Of a stretch of 64,000 bases of DNA, positions 3,737-59,428 are shown one piece after another. The translations under genes and the position numbers were made by a program. The stretch's first letter is position 1, and each line of letters begins with the position of its first letter. The notes under the pieces were generated by a model. That model ran no database searches, was not told where the DNA came from, and saw only the letters and a list, made by a program, of their open reading frames with translations. The stretch is from sequence record OZ346219.1. The stretch is one strand, 5' to 3'. Origin of the DNA: a phage.

Positions 3737-4710
3737 TATACGAACTCCAATTCAACCATTAATTGCATTAACAAAAAGACAATGTGAATCTCTTTATCAG
3801 CCGCGTGTGCAAACATCTGATTATTTTCACCGATAATCTCGGTCAGACGGATAATCGACGCTGGCTTAACTTGAGTATACAACTCATTATAAAGTTTCTT
3901 GACAAATTGAGCGTATGTATTGGTATATCGCGGTGCAAGTTTACGCACATTAGCAAACTGTTTAGTTTTAAGTGCTTCCACCACATCTGTTACTTCGGTA
4001 TTGCTACTTTCGATAACCATGCTCAATACGCCAGCATCAATTTTGCCATGTTTAGCGTAGCGATCCAAAAGTTTCATTACGCGCCGGAAGTCTGGGAAGT
4101 TCTGCTTAACCAGTTCCGCTAATACGCGCATTTCTTCTACTGGCACACCTTCTTTATCAAGAATTGCTTTACACCGGACGATCATTTCTTTCATCATGCG
4201 AAGCTGATCATCTTTAGTCGGAGATCCAAACGTGATGGGGTCAAATCGAGATCGTAACGCTGGGATAATACCTTCTAGATCGTTTGCTGTGATAATGAAT
4301 GTCACGTTGTTTGAGTATGCCTCAGAGAAACTACGCAAGTGTCTTTGAGCATCAGCTAGCCCCGCTCGGTCATACTCATCGATAATAACAACTTTGCCTT
4401 TTTCTCTTTTTTCTTCATCGAGTGATACACTCTGCGCAAAGCGTGTAATCTCATCGCGGATAAAATCAATCTTACAATCTGCGCCGTTAACAAACAGATA
4501 ATCAACACCCACATCTTCGCAAAGCGCCTTAGCAACGGTTGTTTTACCAGTACCTGGCGATGGGCTATGCAGGATCATAGAAGGGATTCGGCCTTGCTTA
4601 ACAATCTGCGCGAAGATCTTTTTATCTGCTTCCGGCAGAATACATTCAGAAATTGATTTCGGACGGTATTTCTGTTCCCACTGAAACTCATTTTCATTAA
4701 CACTCAGCAT
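3736..4710 (-). CDS. 44: Clamp-loader ATPase (gp44-like, RFC family)
   Basis: Walker A SPSPGTGKTT, Walker B VIIDEYD; aligns to recalled T4 gp44; ATG 4710 with GAGGTGA SD (track start 4725 is GTG). Confidence 0.9.
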   Translation of the reverse strand: MLSVNENEFQWEQKYRPKSISECILPEADKKIFAQIVKQGRIPSMILHSPSPGTGKTTVAKALCEDVGVDYLFVNGADCKIDFIRDEITRFAQSVSLDEEKREKGKVVIIDEYDRAGLADAQRHLRSFSEAYSNNVTFIITANDLEGIIPALRSRFDPITFGSPTKDDQLRMMKEMIVRCKAILDKEGVPVEEMRVLAELVKQNFPDFRRVMKLLDRYAKHGKIDAGVLSMVIESSNTEVTDVVEALKTKQFANVRKLAPRYTNTYAQFVKKLYNELYTQVKPASIIRLTEIIGENNQMFAHAADKEIHIVFLLMQLMVELEFV

Positions 4711-10694: not shown

Positions 10695-10982
10695 TTACAG
10701 CATACTTAATACCGTTTGCCGTGTACTAATCCACATAGCAGAAAGCAGTTCTGGCGTGTGTGGCTGTTTGTAGATATCACGTAACTTTCCGATAGCGTAG
10801 ATATACGCATCACGGTTATCATCGATGATAGCTTGTTCAGCCCACCGCTTAAGGCGTGCAATCTCTCGCGAGTTCTTACGCAAGATCTTTTCCGCTTTCT
10901 TAGCGGCTTTAGCCTCTAGTTCTGCTTGTACTTTGTCTACTTCATTCACTGCAATCTGGTCATGCTGTTCATCGTAAGTCAT
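10695..10982 (-). CDS. Hypothetical protein
   Basis: 95-aa ORF with AAGGA SD; occupies the 47-55 interval where T4 has a-gt. Confidence 0.4.
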   Translation of the reverse strand: MTYDEQHDQIAVNEVDKVQAELEAKAAKKAEKILRKNSREIARLKRWAEQAIIDDNRDAYIYAIGKLRDIYKQPHTPELLSAMWISTRQTVLSML

Positions 10983-11217: not shown

Positions 11218-11734
11218 AAAATTGGTCCAAGCTAGGCAATTCCTCGGTCAATACATCTTCAACCTTTGGCGCTTTCGGTTTATTGACCGATTCCTCGTAG
11301 TTGTTGATTTTATCGTAAATGTCCTGTATGAATGCCTCATCAGCAATCTGGCACATATCAGCGTCGCGTTCGTCATATACATGATGCACAAAATATTTGT
11401 ATTTTGCGGCTGTCGCTGTTCTCTCTTTTTTAATGCGCTGTACAAAAGCATTAAAGCACGCTTGCGTGATGTAAGCATGAGGATTTTTATACTTTGTCTC
11501 GTCAAAATTAATCAAACCCTTGACCGCCGCTTCGATTCCGTCGTCGATCATTTCTTCGCGCCACGTTTGACTATAACCAGAAAAGTTAAAACGACGTGAT
11601 AGATTTTTAGAGATTTGCATAATTGCTAGGCCGATTTGATCGCTCATTGGAACTTGCCGACCTTCTGCTGCAATTTGTTGTTTCCAACGGCAAATTTCTT
11701 CGTAAAGCTCTTTATTGTTTACATAATCAGACAC
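11201..11734 (-). CDS. 55: Late-transcription sigma factor (gp55-like)
   Basis: 177 aa; [42 protein letters not shown] and tail [11 protein letters not shown] match recalled T4 gp55; apparent GTG start with GAGGGTG SD. Confidence 0.9.
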
Positions 11735-11774
11735 TTCGCACCCTCGCTATTATTTAGGAAATAACCCTTTCGGG

Positions 11775-16288: not shown

Positions 16289-16792
16289 TCAAATAATTTT
16301 CACTGGAATACTATTAACAATCTTGTATTGTACTTGATTGTCAGACCCCCGCCACGGCTTCTTCGTTGGCATATCTTTAATATAACGCCCATCGATGAAC
16401 ATGTCAACAGATTCTACAATTTTTCTTTGCTCATCATTCAATTGGTCAAGGGTATAACCAGACCATAGCCAAATATCTTTATTTGGCATCCATGATTTTA
16501 CTTCATCGATGATCCGCTGTACACCCTTTAAATTGCGTTTATACAATGGATCGCCACCTAAGAATGTTAGTCCCTGAATAAAATCAGGTCTAAGCAGATC
16601 CAGAATCAATCCCATTGTATCATCGGTGAATGGTTCCCCGTTCTTAGGATTGAGTAGGCTAGCATTAAAGCAACCATCACATGCGTGTGAACATCCGGTA
16701 ACGTAAAGGGAGACTCTCACTCCCTCACCGTTAACCATATCACAATCTTTAATATCGGCATAGCGTAGTTTGCCGTATGTATCAGAACTCAT
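16289..16792 (-). CDS. nrdG: Anaerobic ribonucleotide reductase activating protein (radical SAM)
   Basis: CSHACDGC cluster near N-terminus typical of NrdG; adjacent to nrdD as in T4; ATG 16792. Confidence 0.85.
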   Translation of the reverse strand: MSSDTYGKLRYADIKDCDMVNGEGVRVSLYVTGCSHACDGCFNASLLNPKNGEPFTDDTMGLILDLLRPDFIQGLTFLGGDPLYKRNLKGVQRIIDEVKSWMPNKDIWLWSGYTLDQLNDEQRKIVESVDMFIDGRYIKDMPTKKPWRGSDNQVQYKIVNSIPVKII

Positions 16793-25738: not shown

Positions 25739-26042
25739 CAAGTTTTCCTCTCAGTACAATTCGTGAAATCTTCCCTTCATGATTTCGTTGGTTCTTGTCT
25801 TCACAGTTTACCCATTCAACAAGGTCTTTACCTAACTCGAAAGCCCATTCTCGGTCCTGCTTTACGTTTTGTAGGTATGGACTTTCTGACACTCTACGAA
25901 GTGATGTTGTCGTAACAAGAATGATCTCAGGAATGGTCGGATGTTCTTTTCCATATACAATAGGACGCGAGTCACTATCAATACCTTGTAAGAAGGTGTA
26001 TCCTGAATCACTTAGAATCATATACTTTTTCATTTCACACAT
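25704..26042 (-). CDS. Hypothetical protein
   Basis: ATG 26042 with GAGGAA SD; overlaps upstream stop by 1 nt. Confidence 0.4.
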   Translation of the reverse strand: MCEMKKYMILSDSGYTFLQGIDSDSRPIVYGKEHPTIPEIILVTTTSLRRVSESPYLQNVKQDREWAFELGKDLVEWVNCEDKNQRNHEGKISRIVLRGKLDEIKNRILQSM

Positions 26043-26299
26043 CACAGTTTCCTCAACCAGTTATTAAAGCTAGCAAACCATGATGCTTTTCGTGCTTCTT
26101 TTACTTTATGTGCACGTAAACCACTGAAACACCATTCATAATCATCACTGAAACATGATTCAACAGGAACACCCGCATTTCGTAGTTCTCTGGTCTTTAT
26201 CATGAATCCTTGACATAATGGGCGACCTTCAACAATGATAGGAAGTTTAACTTTTTCCATGAAAGTATACCCAGCACGGTCAATAATTTCAATCTTCAT
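26042..26299 (-). CDS. MKIEIID-family small protein
   Basis: MKIEIIDRAGYTFMEKVKLPIIVEGR; GAGGATTATATT leader; paralogue of 26318-26515 and 28632-28853. Confidence 0.45.
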   Translation of the reverse strand: MKIEIIDRAGYTFMEKVKLPIIVEGRPLCQGFMIKTRELRNAGVPVESCFSDDYEWCFSGLRAHKVKEARKASWFASFNNWLRKL

Positions 26300-26317: not shown

Positions 26318-26515
26318 TTATACCGCCCAGGCTTCATTTGCACGAAAACACCATTCATATTCAGGAAAATAACCTTTAATTGGTACGCCAGCTTTTTGTA
26401 GTTCCTGCGTTTCTACAAGATAATCAAGCCCATAACGACGACCTTCCACGATGATAGGAAGTTTAACGCCATTCATGAAAGAAAATCCACCGTCATCAAT
26501 AATTTCAATTTTCAT
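26318..26515 (-). CDS. MKIEIID-family small protein
   Basis: MKIEIIDDGGFSFMNGVKLPIIVEGR; GGAG SD. Confidence 0.45.
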   Translation of the reverse strand: MKIEIIDDGGFSFMNGVKLPIIVEGRRYGLDYLVETQELQKAGVPIKGYFPEYEWCFRANEAWAV

Positions 26516-26759: not shown

Positions 26760-27217
26760 TTTGTGATCTCCTTATACTCAACACACCATAAGCGGGTAGC
26801 CCATGATAAACGCTCATAACGCTGGCAGAAATCGGACCATAGATATTGTGCACCGTTCGGCATAGTTGAAATATGCGTTTTCTCTCCAACTTTCACGAAA
26901 GAAGTATTCGATTTTGTGATCTCGACCGGAGTATATCCGAAAGCGGGTTCCAAGCCAACATCTGAACTAAATGCCAATTTAACAGAATTTGTTTTTCTGA
27001 CCGCTGTCCGGTTTCCTTCTGGGTATAGTACAGCAGGTTTAGCGCCTAAGCGGATAAACTCAGTGTTTTTAATAAACAGAATATCATGATAACCGTCATA
27101 TTCCGACACTTCCATAGTAACAGGAAAATCGACATGTGCTAAACCTGGTAGATCTCGCATATCATGAAAGGTCGCCATCAACTTTTTCATTCTATATTCC
27201 TCACTCTTCTGTTTCAT
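26756..27217 (-). CDS. Hypothetical protein
   Basis: 153-aa track ORF. Confidence 0.4.
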   Translation of the reverse strand: MKQKSEEYRMKKLMATFHDMRDLPGLAHVDFPVTMEVSEYDGYHDILFIKNTEFIRLGAKPAVLYPEGNRTAVRKTNSVKLAFSSDVGLEPAFGYTPVEITKSNTSFVKVGEKTHISTMPNGAQYLWSDFCQRYERLSWATRLWCVEYKEITK

Positions 27218-27398
27218 TTCTTTTATATGGTACTATAACAGGATTAATACAGCAAGCACCAATTACGTTATGAGCACCACAATTTAAGCATTTATAATCA
27301 TGGAACTTATTAAGGAATCGCCCGAACTCATAACCGACTAGCGCCGCATGTACTTGAGTCTCGATCTCATCCATATCAGCCAATGTTTTAACCTTCAT
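27201..27398 (-). CDS. Hypothetical small Cys-containing protein
   Basis: ATG 27398 with GAGGATTATATT leader; CLNCG...ACC. Confidence 0.4.
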   Translation of the reverse strand: MKVKTLADMDEIETQVHAALVGYEFGRFLNKFHDYKCLNCGAHNVIGACCINPVIVPYKRNETEE

Positions 27399-27408
27399 AA
27401 TATAATCC

Positions 27409-27699
27409 TCAAATTGTAGTTTTGCGAAGATGGTCATTACATGCTTTTAATGCATCGGTCGCGGTGTCATAGCGAGTATTATCATAGCACCAATAACCAT
27501 CTGTCAACTGATAAATTAATCCATCCTTTTTAGCTTCGATGAAAGATAACTCTTTGAAAGTTTCTACTTTCTTTGCTGATAATCCACGGTCACGGCGCTT
27601 ATAGAGTTTAGCCAAAATGCGTTCAGCTTGTTCCTCTTTATCACCAGACAGATCCCAGATGATGTTTCGGATATGCTTGATTAATTGTTCAGTGGTCAT
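27409..27699 (-). CDS. Hypothetical protein
   Basis: ATG 27699 with AAGGAGAATCAAAG leader downstream of promoter 27729-27756. Confidence 0.45.
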   Translation of the reverse strand: MTTEQLIKHIRNIIWDLSGDKEEQAERILAKLYKRRDRGLSAKKVETFKELSFIEAKKDGLIYQLTDGYWCYDNTRYDTATDALKACNDHLRKTTI

Positions 27700-27728
27700 C
27701 TTTGATTCTCCTTAGTTGGTATGCGTGC

Positions 27729-27756
27729 ATTATAGCATTGTGATTATCTTTGTCAA
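27729..27756 (-). promoter_or_regulatory. Sigma70-like early promoter
   Basis: TTGACA-N16-TATAAT after terminator 27771-27795. Confidence 0.6.
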
Positions 27757-27770
27757 CACCCAAAAACAAA

Positions 27771-27795
27771 AAAGGCTACCCCGAAGGATAGCCCA
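27771..27795 (-). terminator. Rho-independent terminator after the Gly-rich gene
   Basis: Minus strand GGGCTATCCTTCGGGGTAGCC then TTTTTTGTTTTT. Confidence 0.6.
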
Positions 27796-27800
27796 TAAAA

Positions 27801-28577
27801 TTACACGCGAGCACCGTAGATCGTGCCTACTTTATCCCAGCGAGGGGCATTACCAGTAACAGCTTTACCCGCAGCACCACCGTTATATTCTGTACCGTTC
27901 CCCTGAGTATTACATCTTCCTCCAGCAGCACCAACGTTACCGCCCGCACCACCTGTATATGCACTAAGAGACCCCTTACCAACAGATCCTTTACCCGGAG
28001 CGGAAATGGAGCCAGCGGTTGCACCAGAACCCATATTAGAGGAAGACCCGGCAGCACCGAATGGGCGACCACCGCCGCCACCAAATACTAGTCGACCCCT
28101 GTTACCGCCGCCACCGCCACCACCGCCGCCAGCGATAGCACCGTTATTTGTAATTCGTAGACGTGTACCGATAGCGTTATTGATTGCGTTTCCACCAGCA
28201 GCGCCAGCAGCGTTACTACCACCATTACCCCCACGTCCGTAGACAGTCACACCGGAGTTAATGATCAATGTTACATATTCGTTTGTTAACGAGCTAGGGA
28301 AGTCAAGACAAGGAACGCCAGTAGATTGGGAAACAATATTACCTGTGATAGTAATTACTACCGGAGTAGATCCTTGTGCTTTCATCCAGTTAATAAGAGT
28401 GTCTTTATTGTAAGAGTTACTAGCACCAATGCTATAATGAATCTCTTTAGAACGTCCGACCATTGCTGACATATACGCCGGACGACCTAAGCGAACAGCT
28501 TGCATTGCGGCGCTCATCCACCGTTGACCAGTCTCGGACACAGCAGATGATCCTACCCATCCAGAAGATATTGCCAT
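27801..28577 (-). CDS. Glycine-rich protein of unknown function
   Basis: 258 aa; ~120-aa N-domain then ~140 aa of Gly-rich low complexity (GGGGGGGGGNRGRLVFGGGGG); GAGGAA SD; locally GC-rich. Confidence 0.55.
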   Translation of the reverse strand: MAISSGWVGSSAVSETGQRWMSAAMQAVRLGRPAYMSAMVGRSKEIHYSIGASNSYNKDTLINWMKAQGSTPVVITITGNIVSQSTGVPCLDFPSSLTNEYVTLIINSGVTVYGRGGNGGSNAAGAAGGNAINNAIGTRLRITNNGAIAGGGGGGGGGNRGRLVFGGGGGRPFGAAGSSSNMGSGATAGSISAPGKGSVGKGSLSAYTGGAGGNVGAAGGRCNTQGNGTEYNGGAAGKAVTGNAPRWDKVGTIYGARV

Positions 28578-28631
28578 AAAATTTCCTCACAAGAAAAGCC
28601 CCAATTAAGGGGCATTGATTGATAATATTAC

Positions 28632-28853
28632 TTAGATGACCTCTGCTTCACCATCCAGGAAGAAAGACCATGTTTTGTTAGGATAGCGAAGCGCCCATGA
28701 TTCAGCAGTTTTAACACCCGCTTCGAACAATTGACGGCTGGTTACTTTAGCCATACCATCTTCGATGGCAACGTTTTCAATAATCATCGGGTACTTAGCG
28801 CCACGCATGAAACCGAAACCAGCGGAAGATTTGATAATTTTAACAGTTGCCAT
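28632..28853 (-). CDS. MKIEIID-family small protein (divergent)
   Basis: MATVKIIKSSAGFGFMRGAKYPMIIENV; TAGGAGAATCAAAA leader downstream of promoter 28895-28923. Confidence 0.45.
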   Translation of the reverse strand: MATVKIIKSSAGFGFMRGAKYPMIIENVAIEDGMAKVTSRQLFEAGVKTAESWALRYPNKTWSFFLDGEAEVI

Positions 28854-28894
28854 TTTTGATTCTCCTAGAAAGTGTATCTCGTTTCGATGGGTGT

Positions 28895-28923
28895 ATTATG
28901 CAATAACACCGGATCGCTGTCAA
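28895..28923 (-). promoter_or_regulatory. Sigma70-like early promoter
   Basis: TTGACA-N17-CATAAT followed by conserved leader ACACCCATCGAAAC. Confidence 0.55.
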
Positions 28924-28940
28924 CACTTTCTAAGAAATTT

Positions 28941-29225
28941 TTAAACTAATCGAATATAGCCCAGAATTTCAGCACTTTTAGCCAGATCTAAAACTTCCCA
29001 TTCAAGGTCTCCATAGTCATAATTTGCAACCATCAACTGACCATTTTTCATGCAGCAATCATGAGAGAAAATTTGCCCCGCATAAACTACGATAGTGATA
29101 AACTTTCCTGATTCTGGCGGTGTGGAAGACAAAGCGACCATATGACCATTCAGCTTAGTCACCAGTGATGGAACAATAAAATTCGGGCTTACCTTAATAC
29201 CGTTAAATTCGTTTGTGTCTTTCAT
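28941..29225 (-). CDS. Hypothetical protein
   Basis: 94-aa track ORF. Confidence 0.4.
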   Translation of the reverse strand: MKDTNEFNGIKVSPNFIVPSLVTKLNGHMVALSSTPPESGKFITIVVYAGQIFSHDCCMKNGQLMVANYDYGDLEWEVLDLAKSAEILGYIRLV

Positions 29226-29572
29226 GCCAGACCTCGCAAAATACTAATAGCATAATCATGCTGGTTATTCATAATATCAATTGCATTGTGATAACGAGCT
29301 AAACCATCAAGGATAAATTCTTGTTTATCCTGTTTCAGTTTGGTATCACGCGCAGCCATAAGAGCATCAAGAACAGGTCCAAAGTGATTATCTAATTCAT
29401 CTTCGGTTGCAATATTTCCTATTGCCTCGTCGATCCGTGATTCTAATGCTTGCTTTTCGTTGATCACTTGCTGGGTATATTCCAACACATCAAGAATATC
29501 GCGGGTAACGTCGCCATGATAAGGTATTCCCGCATGAAGGTGATCAATTAGTCGTTGAATGTCAATGTTCAT
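29222..29572 (-). CDS. Hypothetical protein
   Basis: 116-aa track ORF. Confidence 0.4.
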   Translation of the reverse strand: MNIDIQRLIDHLHAGIPYHGDVTRDILDVLEYTQQVINEKQALESRIDEAIGNIATEDELDNHFGPVLDALMAARDTKLKQDKQEFILDGLARYHNAIDIMNNQHDYAISILRGLA

Positions 29573-29907
29573 TTGTAACCCTCCTCTGAAAGCACATCCC
29601 AGATCGTTGAGTCAAGGTGCATTAAATTCCACATAATAGAGTCATAACTAACGAAGCCAGAAGTAAAAATTACATCACACTGGCGATAGGTCTTATGAAA
29701 ATCGGTGGCTGTCTCTGCATCAATAGGCATATCGTCACCGGAAAGCACCAGACATTTAAGAATCATAACTCTGTTAGCCGTTGGCGCTTGCTTAGTCTTT
29801 TCAGCATATTTTTCGATGATCCGTTTTGCCTTTTCTTCTTTGATACGTCCAGACCAAATCCGGTTTCGGTATTGATTCATAATAATTTCAATCACATCAT
29901 TTTGCAT
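29569..29907 (-). CDS. Hypothetical protein
   Basis: 112-aa track ORF. Confidence 0.4.
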   Translation of the reverse strand: MQNDVIEIIMNQYRNRIWSGRIKEEKAKRIIEKYAEKTKQAPTANRVMILKCLVLSGDDMPIDAETATDFHKTYRQCDVIFTSGFVSYDSIMWNLMHLDSTIWDVLSEEGYK

Positions 29908-30106
29908 TCTTCACGGTCTCCATAATGGTTTTGTAAGCCAGTTTAAGATGATCACCGAAAAACTTTGCGGTGTTACCCTTCGGATCGCGGAGCATGGTTT
30001 CTACGATCTCATCGGCAGCAACAATTTCTCCTTTCTTTGCTGCATGTTCTACCATATACTTCAAAGTTTCTTCGGAAGCAAGTGCTGCGGCTACTGGATT
30101 AATCAT
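29897..30106 (-). CDS. Hypothetical small protein
   Basis: AAAGGAGAATCAAAA leader downstream of promoter 30136-30164. Confidence 0.4.
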   Translation of the reverse strand: MINPVAAALASEETLKYMVEHAAKKGEIVAADEIVETMLRDPKGNTAKFFGDHLKLAYKTIMETVKNAK

Positions 30107-30135
30107 TTTGATTCTCCTTTGTTGTCGATGTGTGC

Positions 30136-30164
30136 ATTATGATATACCCTATTCCGGTTGTCAA
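30136..30164 (-). promoter_or_regulatory. Sigma70-like early promoter
   Basis: TTGACA-N17-CATAAT after terminator 30172-30200. Confidence 0.55.
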
Positions 30165-30171
30165 CACCTAA

Positions 30172-30200
30172 AAACGAAAAAGCCACCCTTTCGGATGGCT
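30172..30200 (-). terminator. Rho-independent terminator
   Basis: Minus strand GCCATCCGAAAGGGTGGC then TTTTTCGTTTTT. Confidence 0.65.
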
Positions 30201-30433
30201 TTTGATTATATTTTATTCACGTCCATTTGTATAGTAGTGTTTGAATCGACCTTTGCTAAACTAGTTAAACATAGTAACCAATTCACCATCCCTTTCCAAT
30301 GATAACCCTTCCTCGTCTTAGACGGGTCTTCCGATTCGGCAGTAATTGAACACGCGAAAGTATGAGGAAGCCAAATAGTTGTGTTAATGCTAGTATTCTT
30401 TTACTTCTGGTATGCATCCCACGGTGACTAACA

Positions 30434-30832
30434 TTAAGACAGTCGAGTGAGTTTATAAATTGTTTTAAAACATAGAGCTTTGATATCGTCTAAAACGCTC
30501 TGTAACGAGCTATCAACATCATTATAAATCTCACTAGCCATTTGCGTTAACTCTTGCAAATAGGCAATTTCGCTAATCTCCTTGCGGACGACCAACGTTG
30601 GCTGATAACGACCAGTGATCCCAATATTGGTTTCAGTGAAATCATCAACCAATTCTTGCATTTCAAGATAGAACTCTTCTAGAGCCTTATGTTTTGCATA
30701 AGATCCAGGACCAGTTACCCCAAAATGCGCAGAATGCATATAAGTAACACTCATCAGACATTCACCGATAAAGCGGTCAACTTTATTAGCTTTCCCCTCT
30801 TCGGACGTCTTTAGAAAATCAATGAATTTCAT
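30434..30832 (-). CDS. Possible Dps/ferritin-like protein
   Basis: 132 aa from ATG 30832 (GGAGAA SD); YMHSAHFGVTGPGSYAKHKALEEFYLEMQELVDDF resembles the Dps helix-A/B signature (AHWNMRG..F..HE....); call is motif-level only. Confidence 0.35.
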   Translation of the reverse strand: MKFIDFLKTSEEGKANKVDRFIGECLMSVTYMHSAHFGVTGPGSYAKHKALEEFYLEMQELVDDFTETNIGITGRYQPTLVVRKEISEIAYLQELTQMASEIYNDVDSSLQSVLDDIKALCFKTIYKLTRLS

Positions 30833-31121
30833 GTTCTCTATTCTCCATATTATGCAACATAACAAACTGTTGTGCGGCATATTCCCCCATAATAAAACAC
30901 TGCTTAGAATCCATACATTTACTACGAGCATACATCTTCATAATATGGGCATGAAATTTCTGGCTGGTTTCAATGGAAGGAGATATTTTGTTTACATATA
31001 CTATCATTGCACCGTCGAAATAATCAGTAAAGTCACCAGTTGGATCATATTGATCAGCACTGACACTTCCGACCGCAGTCAAGCATATTGCCGCTGTTAG
31101 AGTTTTACGAATAAATGACAT
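30819..31121 (-). CDS. Secreted/periplasmic small protein
   Basis: 100 aa; N-terminal signal-peptide-like MSFIRKTLTAAICLTAVGSVSA; overlaps next gene start by 14 nt. Confidence 0.4.
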   Translation of the reverse strand: MSFIRKTLTAAICLTAVGSVSADQYDPTGDFTDYFDGAMIVYVNKISPSIETSQKFHAHIMKMYARSKCMDSKQCFIMGEYAAQQFVMLHNMENREHEIH

Positions 31122-31189
31122 AAGTCATTCCCCCAGATTTAAAATATTCAGTTATATTTATAATCTGGGGCTTTATTTATGATTAACTC

Positions 31190-40366: not shown

Positions 40367-40585
40367 TTATTTATATCGCTTTCTATCGCGACGTTTTTGG
40401 TCTTCTTCCTTGATAGAGTTAAATGCATCAAAAAGACACATGACACTAATAATAAACATAACCGTATTTTCTACGATATCCCACGGCTTCGCATCAGTAC
40501 AGATCCCCCAAACGGTAAGAAATGCAAATAAGGCAGAAGAGATCACAAGAATGATACTTGCTAAGATATAAAAAGTCATTTTCAT
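40367..40585 (-). CDS. Small membrane protein
   Basis: 72-aa track ORF, hydrophobic, basic C-terminus. Confidence 0.35.
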   Translation of the reverse strand: MKMTFYILASIILVISSALFAFLTVWGICTDAKPWDIVENTVMFIISVMCLFDAFNSIKEEDQKRRDRKRYK

Positions 40586-44690: not shown

Positions 44691-45741
44691 AATATGTATC
44701 AGCTAATTTAATTATGTTATCAAGTTCCGTGATTGGTAAAGTTTCTGTGTATCCATCTTTCAACATGGATTTATCAACAACGCCACAATGATAAGTTCTC
44801 TTTATTTCCTTTTCAAGTTCCCACGGAATCCAGCCATCAACACTTTGTTTGACGTAAACAAGTTTGTGAACAAACTTAGATTTCTGCATATGTTGTTTCA
44901 TTCTGGTTTCCGGTAATTCATTGGTTACACCAAACTTTATAAATTTATCATCTAACGTCTGGATATAAAAATATCCCATCTCAGATGGACGATAGCCAGA
45001 AGAACTACATTTCGGACACCCTTTAGCATTTCTGTTGAACGTACAATATCTTACGGAAAATTCTGCATCATGTTTTGTACATTTAAGTTTTATCCATGAA
45101 TTTGCAGTACCTATCCATTCACCATCGACACCTATATATTCATACCCTAACTTTTTACATTTATCTTCTATTCTAGATAGTGCATCTTCCACGGGAACGA
45201 CATATTCCATCTTAAATTGTTCAGCCGCGCATTTCTTACAACCACATGTACCATGATTTTTAAAATCAAAGAACTTTGTATTCTTCCAAATATGGTCATG
45301 TTTCTTGCATCTAAGAATCATCTTAGTAATTTGTGATTTCCACCCACCAACAAATCCCAAAAATTCATAATCAAGATCTTTACATTTTTCTTCAATGAAT
45401 TTGGTTGCTTCCTCTTCTGTCATAACTCCCCTACATTGAGGGCAACCAACAATAACCTTTTTAGCATAGAAACTATTACTGGAAACATCATAGACAGATC
45501 CATGCTTATTGCATTGGATAACAGATCTAGTCAATTTTCCTTTCCATTCTCCAGAAAATCCTAAAAATGTATGGTCGACAAGTTTACACCTCTCAATAAC
45601 TTTGTCCGCAAATTCTCTAGGAGATTTTGTTACTTTGTTTACTCTGTATTCTATTTCTTCCGGTTGACGAAGATCATAAACGTGGGGATTGCTCCCCACG
45701 GAATTAATATTAAGCATCCTTCCACACCTTCCTTGCATCAT
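44689..45741 (-). CDS. GIY-YIG/T5orf172-like nuclease-domain protein with three tandem Cys-rich repeats
   Basis: ATG 45741 (AAAGG SD; track start 45819 overlaps upstream gene); three ~60-aa repeats F.EKC..L.YEFLGF.GEWKG...C.KH...GCP.C then C-terminal GYFYIQTLDDKFIKFGVTNELPETR; sits between the gene 3 and gene 2 candidates. Confidence 0.5.
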   Translation of the reverse strand: MMQGRCGRMLNINSVGSNPHVYDLRQPEEIEYRVNKVTKSPREFADKVIERCKLVDHTFLGFSGEWKGKLTRSVIQCNKHGSVYDVSSNSFYAKKVIVGCPQCRGVMTEEEATKFIEEKCKDLDYEFLGFVGGWKSQITKMILRCKKHDHIWKNTKFFDFKNHGTCGCKKCAAEQFKMEYVVPVEDALSRIEDKCKKLGYEYIGVDGEWIGTANSWIKLKCTKHDAEFSVRYCTFNRNAKGCPKCSSSGYRPSEMGYFYIQTLDDKFIKFGVTNELPETRMKQHMQKSKFVHKLVYVKQSVDGWIPWELEKEIKRTYHCGVVDKSMLKDGYTETLPITELDNIIKLADTY

Positions 45742-46531
45742 AGTTTTTACCTTTAGAAACAAATTTATATGTGTTAAGGTAGATAATATTGCTCCAGTCT
45801 TTCGGGCTAATCTCAACAAGTTTTGTTTTAATGTGTCCAGGTAGATATGCTTTGATCATGTGATCACTTCCACGCATACCTTTTACATCGCTCCATTTGA
45901 TTTTTAAGCGTGTTTTATTGCTCAAGGTAGGAGTAGATGCATATTGCTTTAAAAGTGCCTCTAAAAACTGCTGACGGGCTTTAGGCGTTACATAGTGTAA
46001 GTTAAGACCCAGCATTACAGTATTACCCGCCTTTGTCTTAGAATCACCCAGACAAATGATCAGCGGGAAAACATCCCAATATGGCAAAGTGTCTTTATAC
46101 TTCGCATCATACATAAAGGTATAGATTCGCCCTACTTGCGGTTTTACAATCTGGTGTCCCTTTATTCCCGCTTTTATTGTTTTAGTAAACCACTCCTGTG
46201 ATTTTTCTTTAGGACGACTCTTTGATACAGCACGCATAGACGCACGAAAATCATTAATCATCATCATTGCGCGTTGCTGCTTATTGAGACCCTTTGCTCC
46301 TTTCCCTTTTAGTTTTTCAACTTCTATTGCTGTTTTAATTTCGCTGGCATAACGAGACATACTTTTAGTGAAAGTCGCATAGGCTATTCCCTTAGAATCT
46401 GCAAATGCTTTAGCTGTCATACCTTTGGCTTTTGCTTTCGCAAATTCTACACCCAATTCGACCCACTGTTTAGACTTTCGTTTTTGGGGAGACGGCTTTT
46501 CGTCTTCTGTGATTATTTCAAATACGCTCAT
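45710..46531 (-). CDS. Putative DNA end-protector (gp2-like by synteny and size)
   Basis: 273 aa (T4 gp2 is 274 aa), strongly basic; GAGGATAATATT leader; position between gene 4 and gene 3 candidates. Confidence 0.5.
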   Translation of the reverse strand: MSVFEIITEDEKPSPQKRKSKQWVELGVEFAKAKAKGMTAKAFADSKGIAYATFTKSMSRYASEIKTAIEVEKLKGKGAKGLNKQQRAMMMINDFRASMRAVSKSRPKEKSQEWFTKTIKAGIKGHQIVKPQVGRIYTFMYDAKYKDTLPYWDVFPLIICLGDSKTKAGNTVMLGLNLHYVTPKARQQFLEALLKQYASTPTLSNKTRLKIKWSDVKGMRGSDHMIKAYLPGHIKTKLVEISPKDWSNIIYLNTYKFVSKGKNYDARKVWKDA

Positions 46532-47711: not shown

Positions 47712-47769
47712 TTTAGCACCCTTTATTATAAATACATAATACTATTTATCAATTGAGGGTGCTAAAATG
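47709..47769. repeat. Perfect 14-bp inverted repeat containing both divergent start codons
   Basis: 47709-47722 CATTTTAGCACCCT and 47756-47769 AGGGTGCTAAAATG; includes HNH ATG (47711, minus) and gene 53 ATG (47767, plus); flanks late promoter. Confidence 0.7.
47727..47734 (+). promoter_or_regulatory. T4-type late promoter (TATAAATA) for gene 53
   Basis: Exact TATAAATA ~33 nt upstream of gene 53 ATG. Confidence 0.55.
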
Positions 47770-57339: not shown

Positions 57340-57659
57340 ACATTAAACTACACTACACAATGGGTAAAGCTAAGTTCCCAATGCAAAAGCATTACTATGG
57401 TCTACGTGCACAAGATCCAAAACTCTATGGTACTCATTGGTTTTGTAAACATGATAACCAATGGCACACATACGAAGAAATGCACGAGATGATGAAACAG
57501 GGTATTGAATTGAGTTATTCTAATTATGACCATCGTATAACTTGCATTCGAAAATTGAAACGATGGATTCGTAAGAATCCGCAATTTAAAAACTTTGTGT
57601 TCTTTATGTCTCATGTTTATTTGGGACATAGCGTTACCGTCACAGCAAAGGTTAAATAA
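57327..57659 (+). CDS. Hypothetical protein (cassette ORF 2)
   Basis: 110 aa; basic, His/Trp-rich; overlaps ORF 1 by 13 nt. Confidence 0.45.
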   Translation: MARVNIKLHYTMGKAKFPMQKHYYGLRAQDPKLYGTHWFCKHDNQWHTYEEMHEMMKQGIELSYSNYDHRITCIRKLKRWIRKNPQFKNFVFFMSHVYLGHSVTVTAKVK

Positions 57660-58498
57660 TGGCACGACTTTCTAAACAAGAACAAAAATTACACGATCGG
57701 GTGATGGAGTTGATTAATTCAGATCGCCCATTGACATATGAAGAAAAAGAATTTTGCTATAATAACTATCATGGCGATGGTCTAGGCGGTTCAGGTGCAT
57801 TCTTTACCCCAGAAGGGCTTGCACGGGATTTTACCATCGATGCACATTGCACAGGAAAAGTATTAGATCTTTGTGCTGGGATCGGTCGCTTATCTTTTTG
57901 TATGTTACATCGTTGTAAGCCAGAAAAGATCGTATGCATCGAACTCAATCCAGAATTTGCGCGGATTGGCAAGCGACTATTACCGGAGGCAGAATGGATC
58001 ACCAGCGATGTATTCGAATTTGAGTCAAACGAAAAATTCGATGTGGTGATCAGCAATCCACCCTTCGGGAAAATCAATACAACCGACACAAAGGATGTAT
58101 TTGAGTACACTGGCGGTGAGTTTGAATTTAAGGTTATGACGCTAGGGCAAAAGTTTGCTGATGTTGGCTATTTTATTGTTCCTGTGGGTTCCGCTGGTTT
58201 TGCTTATTCCGGCAGACCTTATTATGACGGGACCATGAAGTCTAATAAATATCTAAAATGGAGCAAACAAACTGGTTTGGTGACTTATGCCGGATGTGGG
58301 ATCGATACATCAATCTATCGCGATGAATGGCACAGTACCAACGTTTTAACAGAAGTGGTTGAGGTTCGGTATTACGAGAAAGAAGCCGTAGAAGCGCCTA
58401 AATCACGCCCTAACGAACAAATAGAAGAAAGTAAGGAGATTACCTTACCGAAACAGGAAAGCGAGTCTGGGACGCTCTCAGATTTGTTTGACATTTAA
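57659..58498 (+). CDS. N6-adenine methyltransferase-like protein (gamma-class motif order) with clamp-binding-like tail
   Basis: 279 aa; motif X GAFFTPEGLARDF, motif I VLDLCAGIGRL, motif IV ISNPPFG; tail ...TLSDLFDI nearly identical to gp43 tail ...SLTDLFDI. Confidence 0.7.
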   Translation: MARLSKQEQKLHDRVMELINSDRPLTYEEKEFCYNNYHGDGLGGSGAFFTPEGLARDFTIDAHCTGKVLDLCAGIGRLSFCMLHRCKPEKIVCIELNPEFARIGKRLLPEAEWITSDVFEFESNEKFDVVISNPPFGKINTTDTKDVFEYTGGEFEFKVMTLGQKFADVGYFIVPVGSAGFAYSGRPYYDGTMKSNKYLKWSKQTGLVTYAGCGIDTSIYRDEWHSTNVLTEVVEVRYYEKEAVEAPKSRPNEQIEESKEITLPKQESESGTLSDLFDI

Positions 58499-58538: not shown

Positions 58539-58546
58539 TATAAATA
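58539..58546 (+). promoter_or_regulatory. T4-type late promoter (TATAAATA) for gene 9
   Basis: Exact TATAAATA ~28 nt upstream of gene 9 ATG, just after cassette terminator. Confidence 0.55.
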
Positions 58547-58573: not shown

Positions 58574-59428
58574 ATGGCACAAGTTCCAAAGAAAAGAATA
58601 GACACAGGTACTGTCGGCAATCCATCGACTGGCGATATCTTATATGATGGTGGTAATAAAATTAACGATAACTTTGATTCAATATATGACGCATTTGCTG
58701 ATCAGCGGTTTAAAGACGTAGACCACGGAGTGGGAAGAATGGTTATTCATGCAACCGGATACTATCAGAAGCATCCACGTCAAAGCTACGCGGGTTCCGC
58801 TGTTGAGATTGGGAGTCTACACGATATCGATACAACTCAAGGCGCACTTATTGCTATTCTACCTAAAGCAAAGGTCGGCGAGGGTGTTGTATTCATAAAT
58901 AGTAACGGTAGCCTTTCAACGACGACACCGCTCAATATTCGAACTCAAGCAGGTGATTCTATTAGCGGTTATTCCGGTGATGCTACAATAACACAACCAT
59001 TTTCAAAAGTCACTGTTTGGTGTACTGCCGTTGAAGGTAGTCGCGTAACATGGCGATTGGGTATCGAAAGTATGTTTACCGATACAACAACGCCATTAGA
59101 TAAAACAGTTAACGTAACTGGAGTAGCAACAAACGTTGCTATTGCCGCAAAAACAGAATATGTTTCCATCAAATTATTAACTACCGCTAGCAATACATCC
59201 GGTTCAAAAATGCGTTCAAGTGAAACGCTACTGATGATTGATTCTAAAGCCGGAAAAGTTTATGCGACGGAATATGCAGTTTTGCAGAAGACAGAAGATG
59301 AACTATACACGGTTCGTTATTTCATCGGTTCCGGCGATAAAGTATATGCAGAGTATAAGGCTACTGGCGAAAATATTCGTTTAGCAGTTAAAGCCGTAGA
59401 CACTATTAAAATCGGGGTTGCTACATGA
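58574..59428 (+). CDS. 9: Baseplate wedge / long-fibre attachment protein gp9
   Basis: 284 aa; KKRIDTGTVGNPSTGDILYDGGNKIN, HATGYYQKH, FINSNGS, KIGVA align to recalled T4 gp9; late promoter TATAAATA at 58539-58546. Confidence 0.85.
   Translation: MAQVPKKRIDTGTVGNPSTGDILYDGGNKINDNFDSIYDAFADQRFKDVDHGVGRMVIHATGYYQKHPRQSYAGSAVEIGSLHDIDTTQGALIAILPKAKVGEGVVFINSNGSLSTTTPLNIRTQAGDSISGYSGDATITQPFSKVTVWCTAVEGSRVTWRLGIESMFTDTTTPLDKTVNVTGVATNVAIAAKTEYVSIKLLTTASNTSGSKMRSSETLLMIDSKAGKVYATEYAVLQKTEDELYTVRYFIGSGDKVYAEYKATGENIRLAVKAVDTIKIGVAT

Follow-up and report, generated by a model that had tools for sequence, protein, structure and literature searches.

A glycine-rich gene, clearly richer in GC than its neighbours, lies in an AT-rich early region of the phage sequence record OZ346219.1, which raises the questions of what its product does and where the gene came from. 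A first-pass annotation of the 64,000-nucleotide stretch analysed here (the window) had considered bacteriocin translocation domains, RGG RNA-binding proteins and some fibres as possible relatives, and had taken the high GC content as a sign of horizontal acquisition. Taken as a whole, the evidence is best explained by the ORF being gene 38 (g38) of an RB49-like coliphage (Krischvirus, Straboviridae), almost certainly encoding gp38, the adhesin that caps the long tail fibre at its tip.

The g38 locus and its flanking elements

The 258-aa reading frame reported earlier was recovered on the minus strand with an ATG start, and the elements around it are the following:

27801..28577, minus strand: gene 38, long-tail-fibre adhesin gp38 of the T2/T6/S16 type; ATG start, 258 aa plus stop
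28584..28588, minus strand: Shine-Dalgarno sequence GAGGA, seen in the sequence 6 nt 5' of the g38 ATG
27794..27773, minus strand: strong intrinsic terminator ending the g38 transcript; 9-bp stem, UUCG loop, U-tract
28598..28613, minus strand: weak GC hairpin GCCCC-TTAATT-GGGGC followed by UUUUCUU, between the 73-aa ORF and g38
28632..28853, minus strand: 73-aa ORF directly 5' of g38, phrog_7345, function unknown
28895..28923, minus strand: sigma-70-like early promoter TTGACA-17-CATAAT, 11/12 match, ahead of the 73-aa ORF
27729..27756, minus strand: perfect sigma-70 promoter TTGACA-16-TATAAT, TG-extended, 12/12 match, just past the g38 terminator

The good ribosome-binding site and the terminator described before are both borne out. 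GAGGA is kept in RB49 and GEC-3S, and the 3' terminator has a folding energy of -14.7 kcal/mol (z=-4.04) and was also predicted in RB49, at 45339-45360 (Nolan 2006 supplement). The hairpin on the 5' side has a stem of only five GC-rich base pairs, and the 63-nt upstream stretch that holds it gives z=-1.2; its RB49 counterpart was predicted as a terminator (46164-46179, 5 bp, confidence 90; Nolan 2006 supplement), and it is probably a partial terminator or attenuator. We likewise found no promoter consensus between this hairpin and the ATG, as had been noted, the closest same-strand promoter 5' of g38 being that at 28923..28895, which is annotated in the GEC-3S record and kept in both RB49 and GEC-3S. 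The 73-aa ORF and g38 are probably carried on one transcript if the hairpin is read through. On the other side, the promoter at 27729..27756 starts the next early unit and bounds the g38 cassette on the right.

The early character ascribed to this region also holds, since the small neighbouring ORFs, also on the minus strand, follow sigma-70-like promoters, of which positions 27000-30500 contain 15, compared with 8.6±2.2 expected. The syntenic stretch of GEC-3S runs from dam through g38 to rI, tk and vs. A plus-strand ORF antisense to g38 (28006..28242, 78 aa, poly-Pro) was rejected as a gene, as it simply mirrors the GGN codons.

Several other features of the window were recorded. The 73-aa ORF is one of three paralogues of 73, 65 and 85 aa (28632-28853, 26318-26515 and 26042-26299, all on the minus strand), which all belong to phrog_7345 (function unknown; E 5e-34 to 6e-39) and have the N-terminal motif MKIEIID..G..FM.G.K.P.I.E in common; only one of them lies directly 5' of g38. 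A DUF5856 protein (30434-30931, minus strand, 6e-21) is rI.-1 in RB49 and is called a 'starvation-inducible transcriptional regulator' in MIZ5; its longest reading frame shares about 110 nt with rI, and the true start is probably further downstream. On the plus strand, a 279-aa ORF resembling SAM-dependent methyltransferases (57659-58498; Pfam MTS 2e-09, Eco57I 4e-06) stands among late baseplate-type genes just before a gp9/10-like gene (58574-59428), an arrangement that we take not to be the T4 gene order. In T4 a cluster of tRNA genes is found beyond tk; an ARAGORN scan of the window from 1 to 64000, which includes rI and tk and reaches well past both, found no tRNA.

Identification of the gene product as the adhesin gp38

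The protein matches the Pfam family PF05268 GP38 ('Phage tail fibre adhesin Gp38') with an E-value of 5.3e-72 over aa 45-258 and the complete model (1-218/218), and its 242.6 bits against a cut-off of 25 place it within the adhesin family. The first 40 residues match PF21721 Gp38_N, again over the whole model (1-40/40; 3.9e-18; 65.6 bits, cut-off 25), and the protein as a whole matches PHROG 2056, 'tail fiber protein; host specificity' (2.3e-98). At the sequence level it also matches two solved adhesins, the gp38 of Salmonella phage S16 (PDB 6F45_D, 1e-49, aa 1-256) and the PP01 gp38 (PDB 9V85, 2e-34). The N-domain is therefore that of a known structural protein, a result that the first-pass annotation had itself listed as one that would count against its reading, and of its three suggestions it is the fibres that proved right, as Pfam, PHROG, the PDB matches and the fold all point to a long-tail-fibre tip adhesin. 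Over the 2.5 kb around the gene, the DNA has 97-99% identity to the Krischvirus coliphages ELT3, KFS-EC, RB49, JSE and Phi1, and Krischvirus genomes annotate the matching ORF as gp38 adhesin or receptor-recognizing protein.

The records of RB49, JSE and GEC-3S give the product another name, 'distal long tail fiber assembly catalyst', which would make it a T4-type gp38, that is, a chaperone of fibre assembly that stays outside the virion. This name was inherited from T4 via the gene number, and the full-length match to adhesin families and adhesin crystal structures stands against it. The T4 gp38 is not in the virion, receptor binding in T4 being done by the gp37 tip itself (PMC6851490); it is very different in sequence and has a folding role only, while the S16/T2/T6-type protein is an adhesin (PMC6851490, PMC3157838). 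Consistently, a Pfam scan of the 258-aa protein at E<=1 returned no family beyond GP38 and Gp38_N, both adhesin families, and detected no likeness to the T4 gp38, with which the protein shares no more than a gene number and a link to tail fibres. A T4-type chaperone is thus highly improbable.

As an adhesin gene, g38 is already known: its family has been characterised, its genomic position is known and near-identical alleles have been published. The RB49 gp38 (AAL15128.2) is encoded at the same site, has the same 258 aa and is 98.4% identical, differing by S4K, S5A, A176G and K201E (window residue first), and the hairpin, Shine-Dalgarno sequence, terminator and promoters that flank it are the same as in the window. 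The KFS-EC gp38 is 99.6% identical, and the same gene occupies the same site in the Krischvirus alleles Phi1, JSE, Cognac49, Whisky49 and KFS-EC. With 98-99.6% identity to adhesins of characterised or sequenced phages, the window copy of gp38 in itself adds nothing new.

Fold and domain architecture

An AlphaFold2 model was built on an alignment of 64 homologues; the model and the first row of the alignment begin after Met1, so that the true residue number is the model number plus one. The model has a mean pLDDT of 94.7, a pTM of 0.87 and no residue below 70. In a Foldseek search of the PDB it matched 6F45_D (E=3e-22, TM 0.81/0.84) and the receptor-binding domain of 9V85 (TM 0.76/0.88), and nothing else at E<2. 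The protein can be divided as follows:

28458..28577, minus strand: N-terminal gp37-attachment domain, aa 1-40, helices alpha1-alpha3; PF21721
27804..28241, minus strand: C-terminal receptor-recognition region, aa 113-258, in which conserved glycine-rich motifs (GRMs) and hypervariable segments (HVSs) alternate
28104..28130, minus strand: Gly9 run (aa 150-158), counterpart of the long central polyglycine-II (PGII) helix (GRM 3) of S16 gp38

The closest structural reference is the S16 gp38, solved in its tip complex with gp37 (PDB 6F45, Dunne et al. 2018), which shows the same three domains at 41% identity, with the central glycine run at the same position. In S16, three N-terminal helices put conserved tryptophans into pockets of gp37, one gp38 monomer capping each gp37 trimer (PMC6851490). 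The modelled helices span model residues 7-15, 20-26 and 35-38, and among the 64 homologues W7 is kept in 60 and W20 in 59, while position 35 is a Trp in 34 and a Tyr in 15. The third anchoring aromatic is Y35 in the window protein, compared with a Trp in S16. With the anchors W7, W20 and Y35 present, the attachment domain is predicted, by analogy with these homologues, to bind gp37: the helical bundle (aa 1 to about 40) would plug into the end of gp37 once the C-terminal chaperone domain of the latter had cleaved itself off. Such a chaperone domain, Peptidase_S74, is found at aa 871-930 (1.4e-11) in the gp37 of RB49, a phage that is 97% identical to the window.

Beyond this domain, the S16 gp38 consists of a five-ring beta-helix with two long excursions that form ten polyglycine-II helices in three layers, its five distal hypervariable loops being the receptor-binding face (PMC6851490). 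The window protein would likewise continue into a short beta-helix with two long excursions carrying the glycine-rich motifs, and its distal hypervariable loops would bind the host receptor and so set the host range. The alternation of GRMs and HVSs, a design described for gp38 adhesins by Trojet 2011 (PMC3157838), was called from the entropy of each column across the 64 homologues. The conserved glycine blocks are YGRGGNGG, INNAIGTRLRITNNGAIAGGGGGGGGG, GGGGGRPFG, GGAGGNVGAAGG and GGAAGKAVTG, and the variable blocks, which hold nearly all indels, lie at about aa 121-126, 159-165, 178-186, 194-208 and 220-232; most of the gp38 indels among these homologues fall after aa 158. The glycine run itself is 7-10 residues long in 62 of the 64, and the S16 segment '151-GGGGGGGG-158' is helix 3 of the polyglycine sandwich (PMC6851490). 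The hypervariable loops of S16 differ from those of the window protein, and therefore so does its receptor specificity.

Could the glycine-rich half instead be disordered, as in a bacteriocin-like translocation protein or an RNA-binding protein of the RGG type, taken up as an early accessory gene? Its composition and its place among early accessory ORFs are what one would expect from such a protein. There are nine consecutive glycines at aa 150-158, as first described, a further five at aa 166-170, and RGG, RGR and GGR motifs at aa 115, 160, 169 and 219. The earlier description of this half as mostly glycine with alanine, asparagine and serine was right as to the four residues, which make up 64% of aa 121-258 (32% Gly, 16% Ala, 9% Asn and 7% Ser), and overstated as to glycine itself. 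Against disorder, no columns in this deep family of phage adhesins are better conserved than the glycine tracts, which have pLDDT values of 93-98 in the model and superpose on the crystallographic PGII sandwich. Their residue-for-residue alignment with the folded sandwich of solved gp38 structures speaks against both a bacteriocin translocation domain and an RGG RNA-binding protein; no colicin, pyocin or RNA-binding Pfam family matched at E<=1. A disordered protein of either kind is therefore scarcely credible, and the model indicates that the glycine motifs of this adhesin pack as polyglycine-II helices in a rigid three-layer sandwich, with no disordered linker.

Origin of the GC excess

The gene is indeed richer in GC than its surroundings, with about 0.505 and a peak of 0.56 over 300 nt, against 0.36-0.44 in its neighbours and 0.40 in the window as a whole. 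The inference of horizontal acquisition drawn from this difference does not survive a check of codon usage. GC at the three codon positions is 0.55/0.62/0.34, so that the excess is confined to positions 1 and 2, and the GC3 of 0.344 is close to the mean of 34 further genes in the window (0.35±0.05, range 0.25-0.43). The choice of glycine codon is similar as well, GGT making up 58% of the glycine codons in g38 and 52% elsewhere. When each codon was redrawn from the window's own usage with the amino-acid sequence fixed, the expected GC was 0.509±0.009, compared with an observed value of 0.506 (z=-0.25). The excess is purely compositional, arising from Gly and Ala codons, and since GC matches the compositional expectation it is no evidence of foreign origin. 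A GC spike made by Gly and Ala codons should accordingly not be taken as horizontal transfer.

Mosaicism of the adhesin gene

Exchange between phages is visible in another form, the alleles being mosaic. Identity in the N- and C-terminal domains is uncoupled: the homologue P0019 is 100% identical in the N-domain and 77% in the C-domain, and P0053 46% and 83%, respectively. The GEC-3S gp38 does not differ anywhere in aa 1-107, and its 39 differences all come after aa 108. Conversely, from about aa 150 to 258 the protein is 85-100% identical to the gp38 of the Mosigvirus FL18, and in DNA the C-terminal cassette of g38 has 85-97% identity to FL18 against 48-65% in the N-terminal part. The T2/T6/PP01-type gp38 of Tequatrovirus and Mosigvirus belongs to the same family and follows the same GRM/HVS design (PMC3157838), while its N-terminal attachment domain is just 25-50% identical to that of the window and fits a different gp37 tip. 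As read from these alignments, it is mosaicism rather than GC that shows the C-terminal specificity region to be exchanged between phage genera, and modular swapping of adhesin specificity is already known (PMC3157838).

Together with the GC of 0.505 against 0.40, the 85-97% nucleotide identity between the C-terminal cassette and a Mosigvirus adhesin could be read as recent acquisition of the whole gene from a GC-richer source. GC3, glycine codon choice and the z-score of -0.25 are all ordinary for the window, and the N-domain is specific to the genus and does not differ between divergent alleles of Krischvirus, all of which makes such an acquisition very unlikely; the mobile part is a specificity cassette smaller than the gene, moving among T-even-like phages of similar GC.

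Displaced position of g38 and empty sites

In FL18, g38 directly follows g37, as in Tevenvirinae (PMC3157838), and in T2/T6/PP01-type phages it belongs to the late operon of the tail fibres, next to the holin gene t. This arrangement does not hold here, where g38 occupies a hyperplastic stretch between dam and rI/tk (as annotated in GEC-3S) and gene 37 is absent from the 64,000-nt window. In RB49 the two genes are not adjacent either (g37 at 151717-154656, g38 at 45367-46143), g37 being followed by ORF251w and then by holin gene t; in the present phage they are about 58 kb apart on the circular map. The distance between g38 and g37 is a published peculiarity of RB49-type phages (Trojet 2011 PMC3157838; PMC12032242). 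Within Krischvirus, g38 lies away from the holin gene in FL37 and FL38 and not away from it in FL04, FL15 and FL20 (2025 study, PMC12032242). Placement of g38 is a trait of synteny rather than of the protein family, and membership among the adhesins is therefore unaffected.

The filled g38 site was found in 44 phage records, while about 15 Krischvirus records match the flanks only. In MIZ5 (2201-2261) and FL20 (2429-2489, both in locus numbering), compared with 27729-28631 of the window, the flanking ORFs are 61 bp apart with no g38 between them. This 61-bp empty site contains a sigma-70 promoter with the stem-loop CGGGGA-GAAA-TCCCCG between its -35 and -10 elements, resembling a promoter-stem-loop (PeSL) element, and homology with it resumes at the TTGACA of the promoter at 27729..27756. 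The filled site has a spacer unlike that of the empty site and has no TTGACA 5' of the hairpin. Insertion of the g38 cassette into the PeSL element, or its deletion from it, by simple repeat recombination was considered, and comparison of the MIZ5 and FL20 sites with the filled site revealed no clean duplicated junction; the PeSL paper of Arbiol 2010 does not mention g38. In MIZ5, g38 directly follows g37, and after the g38 stop lie the 13 final nucleotides of a g37 of RB49 type (TAAAAAGAATTAA), here non-coding (compared, in locus numbering, over MIZ5 11707-11770 and RB49 16645-16699). Because of this 13-nt remnant, the sequence suggests that a g37'-g38 module of the MIZ5 type was imported into an RB49-type locus.

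Transcription of g38

In RB49-type phages g38 forms a self-contained cassette of hairpin, Shine-Dalgarno sequence, gene and terminator, to which no late promoter belongs. On the minus strand of 28578-29265 there is no T4-type late promoter TATAAATA, either as an exact copy or with a single mismatch. Exact copies in the 64 kb are found at 31155-31162 and 40368-40375 on the minus strand and at 47727-47734 and 58539-58546 on the plus strand, a count of 4 against a mean of 6.0 in shuffled sequence; variants with one mismatch are likewise fewer than expected (86 vs 133±13). The closest minus-strand copy to g38 is that at 31155-31162, before rI. The published list of RB49 late promoters agrees, with none near g38 and the closest minus-strand site before rI, 2.6 kb upstream. 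RB49 has neither a motA orthologue nor a middle-promoter consensus (PMC1524935), and its g38 is flanked by two predicted terminators (Nolan 2006 supplement).

We infer that transcription of g38 would depend on partial read-through of the weak hairpin at 28613..28598 by transcripts begun at the early promoter of sigma-70 type (28923..28895), at the late one that lies before rI, 2.6 kb upstream, or at both. Attenuated read-through of this kind would suit the six gp38 copies of a virion. GC hairpins between the g37 stop and the g38 Shine-Dalgarno sequence are also present in MIZ5 (10888-10923) and FL18 (4470-4500, both in locus numbering); a hairpin just 5' of g38 seems to recur whatever the location of the gene, and perhaps sets the ratio of gp37 to gp38. 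A bolder proposal, which we hold only tentatively and consider somewhat doubtful, is that early transcripts supply most of the adhesin through attenuated read-through of the 5-bp hairpin, with the cassette maybe also being what is gained or lost upon a swap of the tail-fibre tip module. If this were true, it would be the partial terminator, and not the strength of a late promoter, that keeps the stoichiometry low, at one gp38 for each gp37 trimer.

Receptor and host range

The RB49 gp38 is reported to use some O-antigens and OmpA as receptors, with the host-range mutations E230K and Y231S (PMC9569957). These sites map to the following feature:

27885..27890, minus strand: E230-Y231, last hypervariable loop; sites of the RB49 changes E230K and Y231S

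Both E230 and Y231 are present in the window gp38. The FL18 gp38 is of 'type 2' and OmpA-dependent by experiment (PMC12032242). Because the RB49 gp38 is near-identical and the segment from about aa 150 to 258 is FL18-like, the receptor of the window allele is most likely OmpA plus certain O-antigens, a prediction made by homology. K201E falls in a hypervariable segment, and the fine host range could for this reason differ slightly from that of RB49.

The long glycine runs of this protein are to be read as a folded polyglycine-II scaffold rather than as disorder. In general, gp38 is the main host-range determinant in most T-even-like phages, so the allele that a phage carries predicts its receptor, which bears on the choice of therapeutic phages.
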